A stretch of DNA of 32,000 bases from Candidatus Thorarchaeota archaeon (GCA_008080745.1 SHMX01000009.1:30001-62000), one strand, 5' to 3'. Shown: positions 14,181 through 18,747, counted from the stretch's first letter. The notes: generated from the letters alone by a model not told the origin. Made by a program: numbers and translations.

Positions 14181-14553
14181 ATAGTTCAAGCTTAGCTTCG
14201 TTCTTCCATAGGCCGTGAATATTACAGTATGATGTTGCCATAATGGTACCTGGTTTTTCAGTCTTGAATACAAATACTGCATATGGCTCAGAATACATCT
14301 TGCTGGTGTCTGCACCTTGTGTTGACTCACCATGATGGTCAAAGGTGTGGTAGCCTATCTCAACAGGAAACTTCTCTCCCTCGGGTAGGAAGAATGCATC
14401 AGCCCATTTAATATGATGTGCGGTTGTATTGGGGTGTGGTATTTCTTTTCCTACTGAAATAGTAATGTGAAACAAATTATCTCCTTTCTTCTCGATTTCA
14501 ATAACGGGTACGTGTTTTTCATTTTTCCAATCATCTGTTTGAATCCAGCTCAT
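14179..14553 (-). CDS. sor: 1Fe superoxide reductase (neelaredoxin / class II SOR)
   Basis: EKHVP, HPNTTAHHIKW and CNIHGLW iron-ligand motifs; no N-terminal desulforedoxin domain. Confidence 0.93.
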   Translation of the reverse strand: MSWIQTDDWKNEKHVPVIEIEKKGDNLFHITISVGKEIPHPNTTAHHIKWADAFFLPEGEKFPVEIGYHTFDHHGESTQGADTSKMYSEPYAVFVFKTEKPGTIMATSYCNIHGLWKNEAKLEL

Positions 14554-14645: not shown

Positions 14646-16142
14646 TTATTTTGATATTTCTTCTAAGTGTGAGAGAGTCCATCTTCCTCTATCAGTCAAA
14701 TCATAGTACTTTCGAACTCTCTTTTCATGAGATCTCATTTCTTTTGTTTCTACTATTAGTCCCCCTCTGGCTAACTCACTAAGATGCTGATATACACTAG
14801 GAATTCTAACTTGTATTCCATATTTCTCATCCAACTGCTTCCATATTTCGTATCCGTAATTCTCATTCTTGGTGAGAATTCGTAATATGCAAACCTTTGT
14901 TCTTCCCAATTTTGTTGTGTATTTTCGCCCCTCTAATCTACTCAGAAGATGTACCAAATCTTTCCGTCCCTTCACAAAAGATTCTGCAATCTCTGGAGAC
15001 TTAAGACCACTGCCTGTTATTATGCAGATTACCGTATCAGTAGGGTCAATAATACCCTGGTCTACAAGTTTTTTGAGGGCAGCTATAGTGGTTGCAGATG
15101 CAGGCTCAGCAAAAACGCCTTCAAGTTTAGCCAACCGCCTTACACTATCTAATATCTCACTGTCCATAACAGTGATTCCCCTCCCTTTGGATTCTCTAAG
15201 TGCACGTAATGCTTTACTGCCACATACCGGATTGGCAACACCAATATCCATTGCCAATTTTGGTTTGCCTGTCGAGGGCTTGACCTCCGTATCTCCCCTT
15301 CGATATGCGTCTACTATTGGTGAAATCCCTTTGACCTGCGTTCCGATGAGTCGAGGAAGATTCCCCTCAATAAGACCCAATTCTTGGAACTCTATGAGGC
15401 CTTTCCATATCATTGAAAGATTTCCTCCACTTCCCATAGGTGTGAGTATCCAGTCTGGTAGTTTCCATTCCATTTGTTCACAGATATCAAATATCATGGT
15501 CTTTGTTCCTTCTAGGAAGGGAGGATTGTTGGAAGTTATGGGATGATATGTTGGTTCTCGTTGCATGGCGAGTGAGATAGCTTCTTCTCTAGTCCTTACA
15601 ATCTCAACATCTGCACCATAAGCAAGTATTTGGTAGAATTTACCTATGTCAACTCGTCCTCTTTGTGCCATGAATACCTTTGCATCAATTGCTGCTTTCG
15701 CTGCGTATGCTACTACAGAAGCTGCAAGATTTCCCGTTGAACCACAACAAATCTTGGTTCTATTGTTCTCTAAGGACACGGATACCTCAACACTACTTCC
15801 TCTATCCAAAAATGAACCTGTGGGATTTGTGGTTTCATTTTTCAAAAGAAGATTTCGAACACCTATTTCAGATGAGAGCAAATTGGCTGGATGCAGATAG
15901 GTATTGCCTTCTCCTAATGAGATGATATGTTTCTGATCCATTATGGGTAACAGCTCAGCATATTTCCAGACCCCACTAACTCTTTTCTTCAATGCCTTTT
16001 TGTCAAGTTTCCCCTTTAGAATCTCAAGATCATATTCTATTTCGAGAATCTCTCCACATTTATTGCAGGTTCTTAGAGATGATGTGCTTGGGTGTGTTCT
16101 TCCACACTTTGAACATGCAAGACCTCTTACAAAAGATGCCAT
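14646..16142 (-). CDS. Threonine-synthase-fold protein lacking the PLP lysine, fused to a C-terminal PadR-like winged helix (probable regulator, not ThrC enzyme)
   Basis: ThrC motifs CSKCG, SLGEGNT, NPTGSFLDRG (K replaced by L), GSTGN, PMGSGGN, EPASA, TGSGLK. C-terminal YGYEIWKQL...SVYQHLSELARGGLI...RKYYDLTDRGR. ATG 16142 has an AGGTGAG RBS. Confidence 0.88.
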   Translation of the reverse strand: MASFVRGLACSKCGRTHPSTSSLRTCNKCGEILEIEYDLEILKGKLDKKALKKRVSGVWKYAELLPIMDQKHIISLGEGNTYLHPANLLSSEIGVRNLLLKNETTNPTGSFLDRGSSVEVSVSLENNRTKICCGSTGNLAASVVAYAAKAAIDAKVFMAQRGRVDIGKFYQILAYGADVEIVRTREEAISLAMQREPTYHPITSNNPPFLEGTKTMIFDICEQMEWKLPDWILTPMGSGGNLSMIWKGLIEFQELGLIEGNLPRLIGTQVKGISPIVDAYRRGDTEVKPSTGKPKLAMDIGVANPVCGSKALRALRESKGRGITVMDSEILDSVRRLAKLEGVFAEPASATTIAALKKLVDQGIIDPTDTVICIITGSGLKSPEIAESFVKGRKDLVHLLSRLEGRKYTTKLGRTKVCILRILTKNENYGYEIWKQLDEKYGIQVRIPSVYQHLSELARGGLIVETKEMRSHEKRVRKYYDLTDRGRWTLSHLEEISK

Positions 16143-16150
16143 CGTTCTCA

Positions 16151-16180
16151 CCTATATATAGGCCTAGGGTTATATATTCC
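16151..16180. promoter_or_regulatory. Overlapping divergent promoter/operator region with palindromes
   Basis: Perfect palindrome CCTATATATAGG (16151-16162); inverted repeat ATATATA-N10-TATATAT (16154-16177) containing TATA-like boxes. Confidence 0.5.
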
Positions 16181-16205
16181 TAATCAATCGCAAGCTCGTC
16201 CAGTA

Positions 16206-16808
16206 TTGGTGGTATTTCCTATGGAAAAAATAAGTTCGAGCACAAAGAATTCAACAGTCTACATTGCCTTATTAGCAATATTTACTGCCCTTACTGCGGT
16301 CATAACTGCAGTAGTTGCAATCCCTTTTCCTACAACATCCGGATATCTTAATATTGGAGATATGATGGTCATGTTGAGTGGAATGCTTCTCGGTCCTGTT
16401 GGTGGATTGATTGCTGGAGGAGTGGGTTCAGGCATGGCTGATGTTGCTTTGGGATATTTGCCCTTTGCCCCAATTACGCTGATAGTAAAGGGGTTTGAGG
16501 GTTTCATTGTTGGATTGTTTAGTCTAAAATCGAAAAAGGCACAAAACCTCACAAGAATGGATGCAATTGGAATCGTCCTAGCCGCAATAGCAATGCTCCT
16601 AGGATACTTTGTATTTGAGAGTATATTATTCGGGCCAGTTGCAGCTTGGGAGGAGTTAGTTAGTATCAACTGGATTCAAGTTACTGTTGGCGGAATATTT
16701 ACAGGATTATTTGGTCCGAAGATTCGTTCATATTTGCATAATGCCTCAGTAACATTGGCAGAACCAGGCGAATATGAAGAGCTAGAACTTTCAGAAATCG
16801 ACGCTTGA
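16206..16808 (+). CDS. ECF transporter S component (family containing PdxU2/HmpT-like B6 transporters)
   Basis: GYLNIGD...LLGPVGGLIAGGVGSGMADVALGY..FAPITLIVKGFEG signature; ~5-6 TM; alternative ATG at 16221. Confidence 0.82.
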   Translation: MVVFPMEKISSSTKNSTVYIALLAIFTALTAVITAVVAIPFPTTSGYLNIGDMMVMLSGMLLGPVGGLIAGGVGSGMADVALGYLPFAPITLIVKGFEGFIVGLFSLKSKKAQNLTRMDAIGIVLAAIAMLLGYFVFESILFGPVAAWEELVSINWIQVTVGGIFTGLFGPKIRSYLHNASVTLAEPGEYEELELSEIDA

Positions 16809-16965
16809 AAACTGAATCGTTTTAGATATCGGAATTTGCAGTTTTCAAGATACTTCTGGAATGAAGATAGAAAACGAATATGTTCTTTCAGAATCGTTTT
16901 TTAATAATCAAGTATTGGACTATCTTGGCTTACTATCAGAGTCGAATTGATTGGAAGGTCTTGAA

Positions 16966-18243
16966 ATGGACAGAGAAAAGTTACGAATTGATGCCAAACA
17001 ACTCGAAGCCATAAACGATTTTCTCCTGAATGAAGATAATCCTTTGATTACTGATTTATTGGAGGTAATTGAAAAGTATGGTGGTGTTGATGAAATTAAT
17101 GGAAAAGCCGAGAAAGCAAGAAAGTTAGAGAATCTCCTAGCTATGTTAGAAGAGAAGGATTCTCCCTATTTAGAGGATCTTAGATGGCTTCAAGAACAAC
17201 GTGACAATGGTGCTTTCATTAGTATTTCCGATTATAGACGAAATGTTCTGGGCGATAAAGCTGACTCGGTGGAATTTGATGAAAGTTTTGCAGTCACCCT
17301 TGAGATTAGCGCCTGTCAATATTTCCCATGGCTCATTGAACAAGCTAAACAGGCAATTGAAAATCAAGAACTTATGCCTGCCCGCTTTATCCGCGTTAGA
17401 AAGATGAAGGAACAAACAGAAGATGATGATATTATTGCTTTTGCTGCTGCTATGCAGATTTTAGGAGCTTCATATGTCGAAACTTTGGATACAAAAGGTA
17501 CGGCCCCTGGACCTGATGGGGCACCTGTGAACATTCACCTCGGTGGTCCTGAGACCATCACTGGTTATTTTGGTGGAGTTGGTATGCCAAATGATTTTGT
17601 CATCAGGTGGGCAGATGAATTCCTTCACTACTATACCACTTATGGTGTAAAACAGGTTTTGAATATCAACCCTGGTAGTGTCCTTATCGGGTATATGATG
17701 CACAAAATGGGCATCGATATAGAGTTCAAAATATCGGTCTATATGGGAAATGATAATCCTTATGCATGTCTGTGGACTCTACTAACTGCCAAGTTATTCA
17801 GTCGTCCTGATGGAACCACATCTCTGATTGGTTTCAACCTATCTAACAGTGTTGACAATACCACTATTGAACTTGCATCCTTCATTCGGGGTGAGTTTGG
17901 TTTTGAAGATGTAGTACGACTAGAACATCATATCACTGAAACCTACAAGTCCATTGTCAGACAGCCATATGATAGGACCGAAGAACTCGTGGAGCTTGCG
18001 GATCATGTTAAGAACATAAGTGCCAAACACGAGGGTGGCATTCCTGAAATTGATGTCACACGTGAGCATCCAAGTGATATTCTCGATTACTTCCGTGATA
18101 AGAGTGAAATTGTAGAGTCTGGTGATATGCCTAAGATGCTGCGAAACTATCTTGACAAGCATCATGCTCTCAATCGCACTGCAGAAGAGTTGACAAAGAA
18201 AGGTCTTACCTTTATCGCAGCTCCAAAGCTGCACAAGAAATAG
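16966..18243 (+). CDS. Conserved-looking soluble hypothetical protein (possible enzyme)
   Basis: Long clean ORF; ATG 16966 with GAAGGT upstream; Gly/His-rich motifs HLGGPETITGYFGGVG, EHHITETY, KHEGG. No family recognised. Confidence 0.8.
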   Translation: MDREKLRIDAKQLEAINDFLLNEDNPLITDLLEVIEKYGGVDEINGKAEKARKLENLLAMLEEKDSPYLEDLRWLQEQRDNGAFISISDYRRNVLGDKADSVEFDESFAVTLEISACQYFPWLIEQAKQAIENQELMPARFIRVRKMKEQTEDDDIIAFAAAMQILGASYVETLDTKGTAPGPDGAPVNIHLGGPETITGYFGGVGMPNDFVIRWADEFLHYYTTYGVKQVLNINPGSVLIGYMMHKMGIDIEFKISVYMGNDNPYACLWTLLTAKLFSRPDGTTSLIGFNLSNSVDNTTIELASFIRGEFGFEDVVRLEHHITETYKSIVRQPYDRTEELVELADHVKNISAKHEGGIPEIDVTREHPSDILDYFRDKSEIVESGDMPKMLRNYLDKHHALNRTAEELTKKGLTFIAAPKLHKK

Positions 18244-18276: not shown

Positions 18277-18747
18277 TTACATATCTGGTTGGAATATATC
18301 ATCATACATTTGTTGTAGACGATCTTTGTGTTTTTGTTCTTCCTCTGCCAATGTTTCAAAGATAGTTCTGTGTTCTGCTACACTGGTCAATTCGGATAAT
18401 GCTTTGTAGAAGTTATATGCTCCTTCTTCACGTTTGATTGCTACTACAAGGATATCTTGGGGCGAAGAGTCTGGTTTCAGTGGGACATCAACCAGATATT
18501 TTCCTAAATCCAATTTATCCAGCTCTTCTTCCGTCTTACACTCAAAGGTATCACAGACCCCCTCACTTAGGGCCTTCTCAAGCTTTTCTTTGTGAGTTAC
18601 TTCTTGATGTGCTAAATCTTCAAGTAGTTTTGCAGATGAGGAGAGAGTCGCCTCTTCTGCGGCGTTTTTGTAGAATTCGTAAGCCTCTTCCTCCCTCTGA
18701 ATTGCAAGGGAGATTAACCTCTCAAATGATTTCTGAACTTCTGTCAA
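18277..18747 (-). CDS. Rubrerythrin/ferritin-like di-iron protein without a rubredoxin domain
   Basis: Duplicated motifs REEEAYEFY...EVTH and REEGAYNFY...EEQKH; TTG start. Confidence 0.85.
   Translation of the reverse strand: MTEVQKSFERLISLAIQREEEAYEFYKNAAEEATLSSSAKLLEDLAHQEVTHKEKLEKALSEGVCDTFECKTEEELDKLDLGKYLVDVPLKPDSSPQDILVVAIKREEGAYNFYKALSELTSVAEHRTIFETLAEEEQKHKDRLQQMYDDIFQPDM

Follow-up and report, generated by a model that had tools for sequence, protein, structure and literature searches.

In bacteria, the PLP-dependent MocR-type regulator PdxR controls regulons that hold pdxST, pdxK and pdxU, and in its ligand-free form it activates pdxST while repressing pdxR from the divergent spacer that the two share (PMC5320631). 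On the uptake side, the S-component solved as 4HZU chain S, HmpT, has been re-assigned as the pyridoxamine transporter PdxU2 (PMC4860826), and PdxU and PdxU2/HmpT both belong to PF07155 (PMC9997740). B6 transporters are known in very few prokaryotes, and how organisms that have neither synthesis nor salvage genes come by PLP is still an open question (PMC9997740). In the literature searched, we found no description of a fused threonine synthase-like/PadR (ThrC-PadR) regulator or of B6 regulation in Archaea. Here we analyse a divergent gene pair of a Candidatus Thorarchaeota archaeon that is, in our judgement, likely to form a two-gene B6 supply module, in which an ECF S-component would act as the importer and a ThrC-PadR protein as a repressor binding a 22-bp dyad, with a B6 vitamer as the signal.

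Within the window (the whole stretch of 32,000 nt that was analysed), the regulator gene (14649-16142, minus strand, 498 aa) and the S-component gene (16221-16808, plus strand, 195 aa) diverge from a 78-bp spacer with a putative shared control region (16143-16220), bounded by the regulator ATG at 16142 and the S-component ATG at 16221. These ATG starts were chosen as the ones backed by orthologue alignments, and the measured distance agrees with the 60-80 bp or so estimated in the initial annotation; taking the longest ORFs instead (starts GTG 16151 and TTG 16206) would shorten the spacer to 54 bp. A Shine-Dalgarno-like GGTGG (16209-16213, plus strand) stands 7 nt before the S-component ATG. 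In genome-wide positional k-mer counts, GGTG and GGAGG gave strong peaks at -8 to -14 from start codons and no clear TATA peak was seen. A sigma-70 promoter scan of the spacer found no match, the model being bacterial and irrelevant to an archaeal host. The region is present in only two DNA runs, both of one marine-sediment study, and the labels of close homologues put the genome in the Thorarchaeota, which belong to the Asgard archaea.

A desulfoferrodoxin-type superoxide reductase (SOR) gene (14182-14553, minus strand) and a rubrerythrin-like gene (18280-18747, minus strand) bracket the pair, and the order SOR, (ThrC-PadR), S-component, orf430 is kept in the family. The last of these, orf430 (16951-18243, plus strand, 430 aa), lies directly 3' of the S-component gene and follows it in most same-family loci, regulator-less ones included. 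It is labelled 'hypothetical' everywhere, has more than 8000 database homologues and is about 78% identical across Thorarchaeota, far above its neighbours. It gave no Pfam, NCBIfam or Atlas match, AlphaFold modelled it only poorly (pLDDT 55.7; the model repeats a strand-helix pattern) and Foldseek with that model returned nothing at E < 0.1, on which grounds orf430 was set aside as a clue to the substrate; a role in B6 salvage, given a family without a B6 kinase, is conceivable though unsupported.

The S-component is assigned to PF07155 ('ECF-ribofla_trS') by the curated cut-off (E 4e-34, 118.5 bits against 26.7) and is also matched by PF12822 (E 5e-9, 36.9 bits against 30.7). The signature read from it in the initial annotation is present as GYLNIGD, GGVGSGMAD and GYLPFAPITLIVKGFEG, and across 35 Asgard orthologues the conservation of its core is 90% or higher. 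Residues 9-169 align to residues 3-160 of 4HZU chain S (E 1.8e-11), the sole relative in the PDB, so the protein can be aligned as a membrane protein to a solved S-component. The HmpT pocket residues E41, H84, Q87, Y120, N140 and Q143 correspond to D47, K90, E93, Y129, N150 and Q153; three of the six are identical (Y, N, Q), one is a conservative change (E to D) and two differ, the Lys and Glu that replace H84 and Q87 being invariant in the 35 Asgard orthologues. Like PdxU and PdxU2/HmpT of Firmicutes (PF07155, COG4720), with which about 160 residues are aligned, it is solitary (group II type) and relies on an ECF module encoded elsewhere, and it is found where PLP synthase is missing and next to a predicted B6-linked regulator; unlike them, it has an archaeal host, and identity is only about 25-30%. 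On this alignment and family assignment, the transporter joins the PdxU/PdxU2 group as a new and distant member, with vitamin B6 as its predicted substrate.

No EcfT gene lies within the 32,000-nt window, in line with the earlier remark that ECF module genes are missing from it; the two CbiQ/EcfT matches of the genome sit on contig C10, with EcfA, EcfA' and EcfT, and on contig C2, with a fused EcfAA' and EcfT. As judged from the genes, an energising module (EcfT plus two ABC ATPase domains) is thus encoded in the same genome, and the solitary S-component has partners available. Although there are two ECF modules, only one clear PF07155/PF12822 S-component was seen in the genome, together with a 23-bit match (C2:252126-252524); it presumably has further vitamin importers that are still unrecognised. 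In one Asgard family, a divergent S-component/regulator pair (locus L071, G060:C30:20000-27500) has EcfT and two genes of ABC ATPase size, one with Pfam confirmation, as its immediate neighbours, making a complete transporter locus.

The divergent gene encodes a ThrC-like domain (Pfam PALP, residues 74-377, E 4e-59) followed by a C-terminal PadR-type winged helix (PF03551, residues 419-490, E 3e-16, 59.8 bits against a cut-off of 27), which by its wHTH domain makes the predicted regulator a member of the PadR family. A helix motif, VYQHL, is invariant in 15 of 15 diverse fusions. The ThrC fold is a fold-type II PLP fold, and in the regulator motif NPTGSFLDRG the catalytic Lys is replaced by Leu; Leu or Ile occupies this position in all 13 close regulator homologues compared, and the two ordinary ThrC paralogues of the same genome retain SFKDR. 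Since the PMGxGG glycine-rich loop and the TGxGLK motif of the fold are invariant among the fusions, a PLP-type ligand pocket is plausible. The label 'pseudo-ThrC' given at first fits the regulator of the window and fails for one large related family that keeps the catalytic Lys.

Across the ThrC-wHTH fusions, the residue at the Schiff-base position (window 15807-15809) differs by lineage. Lys is kept in fusions of Asgard family f9 (L084, L087, L091-L093) and of Hermodarchaeota; Arg is found in f3, f6, f7, f15 and many Bathyarchaeia; Leu, Ile or Met is found in the window's family, f8, f10, f16, f27, Nitrososphaerota and one Methanomethylicota MAG; Ser and Ala were also seen. The NCBIfam model PRK05638 'threonine synthase' (NF004170), a profile of 442 positions, covers regulator residues 9-493 with the wHTH tail included, so the fused architecture is already in the databases, annotated as an enzyme. 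The regulator scores 295 bits against this profile, under the 421-bit cut-off, and the name is that of an enzyme but the regulator has no catalytic lysine.

Both of its parts invite comparison with described regulators. The PadR-family regulators PadR and LmrR have ATGT-N8-ACAT operators. The protein described here shares with that family the PadR winged helix and a dyad-symmetric predicted operator with a short fixed spacer beside its own gene; it differs from known PadRs in having the wHTH attached to a 400-residue enzyme-like sensor, which makes dimerisation through the ThrC fold probable, and in its half-site, TATAYARG. Like PdxR, it is a one-component protein that combines a PLP-enzyme fold with a winged helix, its family forms divergons with B6 synthesis or uptake genes with a predicted repeat operator in the shared spacer, and it is probably autoregulated. 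Unlike PdxR, whose sensor is a fold-type I aminotransferase domain and whose DNA-binding domain is N-terminal and GntR-type, it has a fold-type II (threonine synthase) sensor and a C-terminal PadR-type domain; many fusion members have lost the Schiff-base lysine (L, I, R, S, M, A), with one large family keeping it, and the predicted operator overlaps an archaeal TATA box. Having neither a GntR wHTH nor a fold-type I domain, the regulator falls outside the MocR/PdxR family, and the features it shares with MocR/PdxR regulons, namely B6 genes and an operator-like dyad in a shared spacer, amount to functional analogy only. The resemblance to PdxR is one of convergence, not homology.

The gene pair is conserved well beyond the window. 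In the same family, 35 of the 36 genomes sampled carry the S-component, with ThrC-PadR as the divergent gene next to it in about 20 of 29 loci and a desulfoferrodoxin gene in that place in the others; these genomes are related and do not count as independent observations. The regulator is absent from 14 of 37 same-family genomes, 13 of which keep the transporter, where absence means 'not found' because most of the genomes compared are MAGs. About a third of the family thus retains the transporter and has lost the regulator, which indicates that control is dispensable. A full-length ThrC-wHTH fusion adjoins a PF07155 S-component in f3, f6, f9, f10, f12, f18, f21, f24 and f30, in divergent, co-directional or convergent orientation, and the same holds for 17 of the 27 fusions that come from Bathyarchaeia, Nitrososphaerota and others. 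The adjacency on which the initial annotation had built its two-gene regulon is therefore conserved within the family and extends to nine or more other Asgard families, to Bathyarchaeia and to Nitrososphaerota. The same type of regulator also stands beside the PLP synthase genes, lying upstream of pdxS-pdxT in G043 (Pfam-confirmed), divergent from pdxS in G074 and in seven f27 genomes, and beside pdxS-pdxT in one Hadarchaeota MAG and one Nitrososphaerales MAG.

The spacer between the two genes contains the two AT-rich elements described earlier, a perfect 12-bp palindrome, CCTATATATAGG, at 16151-16162, and the pair ATATATA-N10-TATATAT, with ATATATA at 16154-16160 and TATATAT at 16171-16177. 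A repeat search returned a 24-bp dyad with arms at 16154-16165 and 16166-16177, within which the 22-bp dyad TATATAGG-N6-GTTATATA (16155-16176; N6 = CCTAGG) is the predicted operator. It is the sole site of the genome that scores at least 15/16 against TATWYARG-N6-CYTRWATA, compared with three to six such sites in shuffled genomes. TTATATAT (16170-16177, plus strand) is inferred to be both its right half-site and the TATA box of the S-component gene. The palindrome itself occurs once in the window (0.05 expected) and twice in the 3.16-Mb genome. A pattern search of 61 relatives found it in 17 same-family genomes, almost always as one copy per genome, and all copies but one (G003) sit at the S-component/regulator locus.

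Comparison of the spacers indicates which bases matter. In the 23 distinct spacer sequences that have the regulator, C[CT]TATATATA[AG]G is followed after exactly 7 nt by TTATATAT, and the remainder is not alignable; the 7-nt gap between the two AT blocks is invariant in these loci as the flanks diverge. At same-family loci without the regulator, only GGCTCAAGGTTATAT(G/A) survives before the S-component (TTATATAT plus the upstream GGCTCAAGG), which points to this element as the BRE/TATA of the transporter and assigns the left block to the regulator. A conserved dyad-symmetric site is thus present beside the PadR-type regulator, and its role as the binding site of that protein is predicted. The functional unit is probably the 22-bp dyad at 16155-16176 rather than the 12-bp palindrome, which we read as the left half-site joined to the inner half of a vestigial tandem site. 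The original proposal of a palindromic operator accordingly survives in having a conserved operator-like dyad behind it and has to be revised as to the unit.

The other genomic copy of CCTATATATAGG (contig C7:32340-32405; L035:1940-2006) is preceded by three tandem ATGTACAT palindromes and has the gene of a TrpB2-like PLP enzyme about 260 nt downstream. It was rejected as a regulon member, being a half-site without a partner that failed the dyad scan. No Rfam or tRNA match was found beside it, and the array may serve an unannotated RNA as a strong promoter or form an operator array of its own.

Related dyads of the form TATAYARG-N6-CYTRTATA, often in tandem, occur beside ThrC-wHTH fusions in many Asgard families, Bathyarchaeia and Nitrososphaerota, where the associated neighbour is a PF07155 S-component or pdxS-pdxT. 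Representative sites are TATATAGG-TTTTTT-CTTATATA in f10, TATATAAG-TAATTA-CTTATATA in f12, TATTCAAG-TTTTAA-CTTGAATA in f6 and, in tandem, TATACAAG-N6-CTTGAATA in f3. In f9, TATATAAG-N6-CTTATATA is present twice with an overlap of TATA that forms the 12-mer CTTATATATAAG, and by its make-up this tandem junction is the counterpart of CCTATATATAGG in the window. The dyads before the S-component or pdxS in other families are perfect or nearly so, and are often tandem with an offset of 18 bp. Dyads such as TATACAAG-TTATAA-CTTGTATA are placed just before the ribosome-binding site of pdxS (G074, f27), and in Bathyarchaeia loci a related palindrome, TAGTATAGTTATAACTATACTA, lies between the fusion and the S-component. 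The operator subtype, with inner GTT-NN-AAC conserved or N6 variable, seems to track the split at the Schiff-base Lys position.

When one genome per species was scanned, dyads scoring at least 15/16 were found at 8 of 27 fusion loci (205 kb) versus 1 of 53 ordinary ThrC loci (418 kb). In the family-level comparisons, dyads were absent from the two f9 loci without a fusion and from fusions that adjoin neither pdxS nor an S-component (f7, f15, f17). A dyad with the fixed N6 also precedes pdxS and S-components that have no divergent neighbour (co-directional or convergent), and two back-to-back TATA boxes cannot explain the latter sites. The operator-like dyad thus recurs upstream of S-components without a divergent gene and upstream of pdxS, which supports the prediction that the AT-rich elements are a conserved operator rather than merely two TATA boxes.

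What the module would carry was approached through the distribution of vitamin synthesis genes. Searches for PdxS drew a blank in the genome, which is 98% complete, and in all 76 same-family genomes, and the best PdxT match in the genome reached only 22.6 bits, beside his genes; with PLP synthase (PdxS/PdxT) not found, the organism appears to need B6 import. Among 301 Asgard genomes, the S-component was present in 10 of 46 PdxS-positive genomes (mostly weak matches) and in 227 of 255 PdxS-negative ones. For the controls, the corresponding counts were 87 of 104 and 150 of 197 for ThiC, and 20 of 43 and 217 of 258 for DMRL synthase. The S-component and PdxS are therefore nearly mutually exclusive, the DMRL synthase association is weaker and ThiC has no such pattern. 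The PdxS contrast agrees within families f5, f9 (genus g31) and f27. Family f27 has PdxS, lacks ThiC and DMRL synthase and has no S-component; f17 and f9-g53 have ThiC and DMRL synthase, lack PdxS and retain the S-component. These three lineages discriminate, and they indicate that the distribution of the S-component follows PdxS and not DMRL synthase. Complementarity with PdxS, together with a regulator family that alternatively flanks pdxS-pdxT, upholds the link to B6 first suggested from the PLP-type fold of the sensor, and supports the prediction that the S-component imports a B6 vitamer. On each of the three points named in the initial annotation as possible refutations (adjacency, operator and B6 link), the outcome thus favours its proposal, as far as comparative genomics can judge.

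The form of the vitamer is less certain. No canonical B6 kinase (PF08543), that is, no full-length PdxK/ThiD-type kinase, was found in the family, which means that an unphosphorylated vitamer would need an unknown kinase or that a phosphorylated vitamer is imported; the vitamer carried may accordingly differ from that of PdxU/PdxU2 and could be PLP. One may go further and suppose that the S-component imports PLP (or PNP/PMP) and that the Lys-less ThrC domain senses free PLP non-covalently. The family without PdxS/PdxT and without a PdxK/ThiD-type kinase and the Lys/Glu pair in place of the pocket His/Gln point that way, and we put this forward tentatively, as a possibility rather short of an expectation. 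If it were true, the protein would be the first PLP-type ECF transporter and, with its regulator, would constitute the first B6 regulon described in Archaea (Asgard, Bathyarchaeia, Nitrososphaerota).

For the two-gene B6 supply module as a whole, we infer protein-DNA binding, the B6-vitamer ligand, the transported vitamer and repression as follows. By docking onto one or other of the two EcfA/A'/T modules, the S-component would bring a B6 vitamer into the cell, and a regulator dimer would bind the dyad at 16155-16176. The dyad lies 13-34 nt upstream of the regulator's ATG and its right half-site is the predicted transporter TATA box, so that binding should block TBP/TFB or RNA polymerase; on this geometry, the bound regulator would repress both genes. 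The ThrC-like pocket would hold the signal, which is likely to be PLP or a related vitamer: when B6 is replete the regulator would be bound and the genes off, and when B6 is scarce it would be released and the genes on. Transcription of the transporter would start about 26 nt downstream of its TATA box, leaving a leader of about 20 nt that carries the Shine-Dalgarno element. An archaeal TATA box normally lies about 26 nt upstream of the transcription start. In most loci only about 12-18 nt separate the middle of the palindrome from the conserved start codon (ATG) of the regulator, too short a distance for it to be the regulator's own TATA box; the regulator is more likely transcribed from the right block in reverse, in which case the dyad would lie over its initiation region.

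The same parts and the same cargo could be wired with the opposite logic, the ligand-free regulator activating, much as apo-PdxR activates pdxST and represses pdxR from one divergent spacer. The left half-site is indeed just upstream of the S-component BRE/TATA, a position used by some archaeal activators. However, the predicted TATA box itself (16170-16177) doubles as the right half-site, the tandem dyads of other families span about -50 to -8 before the S-component ATG, and further dyads fall between a TATA-like element and the SD of pdxS. As far as geometry only can tell, these positions fit occlusion better than recruitment, and we consider activation by the ligand-free form unlikely.

The module could also be real while its cargo is something other than B6, either another micronutrient (HMP/thiamine precursor, riboflavin) or an amino-acid-related compound, with the ThrC-like domain sensing O-phosphohomoserine or threonine. 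In favour of this, Pfam calls PF07155 'riboflavin transporter S component', HMP was the cargo originally assigned to HmpT, the pocket departs from that of HmpT at two of six positions and the sensor goes back to an enzyme of amino-acid biosynthesis. Like PdxS, neither ThiC nor DMRL synthase turned up in the window's family, and a family that needs several vitamins with only one clear S-component speaks against the B6 reading. Yet lineages with ThiC (f3, f9, f17, f21) or DMRL synthase (f17, f9-g53) retain the S-component and the regulator, whereas PdxS lineages lose the S-component, including f27 without ThiC and DMRL synthase; the regulator family with the same type of dyad flanks pdxS-pdxT in at least five lineages; and the RibU equivalog match of the S-component reaches only 24 bits against a cut-off of 99. 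HMP was set aside as the cargo on the ThiC control (87/104 versus 150/197), and a cargo other than B6 appears distinctly improbable.

That the AT elements are nothing but the TATA boxes (with BRE) of back-to-back promoters, with no operator and no regulatory link, is very improbable: TATATATA and TTATATAT are both ideal TBP sites, divergent genes require two promoters, the right block survives as the S-component promoter in regulator-less loci and the half-sites are TATA-like, so that conservation may partly reflect promoter function, but the palindrome centre is too near the regulator ATG for a TATA box, the tRNA promoters of the genome resemble TTTATA and not CCTATATATAGG, TATATATA is rare (24 copies in 3.16 Mb) and the 12-mer all but unique to the locus in relatives, and the fixed-N6 dyad recurs where no divergent promoter is at hand and before pdxS.

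If the locus is the B6 supply module proposed here, its regulator would represent a PLP-enzyme fold recruited as a predicted sensor for its own cofactor, convergent with bacterial PdxR, and the module offers a candidate archaeal B6 importer. It also draws attention to a widespread archaeal regulator family, with ThrC-wHTH fusions ranging over Asgard, Bathyarchaeia, Nitrososphaerota and Hadarchaeota, that is annotated 'threonine synthase' in databases, and it comes with a defined predicted operator that is directly testable by EMSA. The prediction that follows is that this Thorarchaeota family and most of the sampled Asgard genomes depend on B6 from other organisms, and such a dependence would matter for how they live in syntrophy and for how media to culture them are designed.
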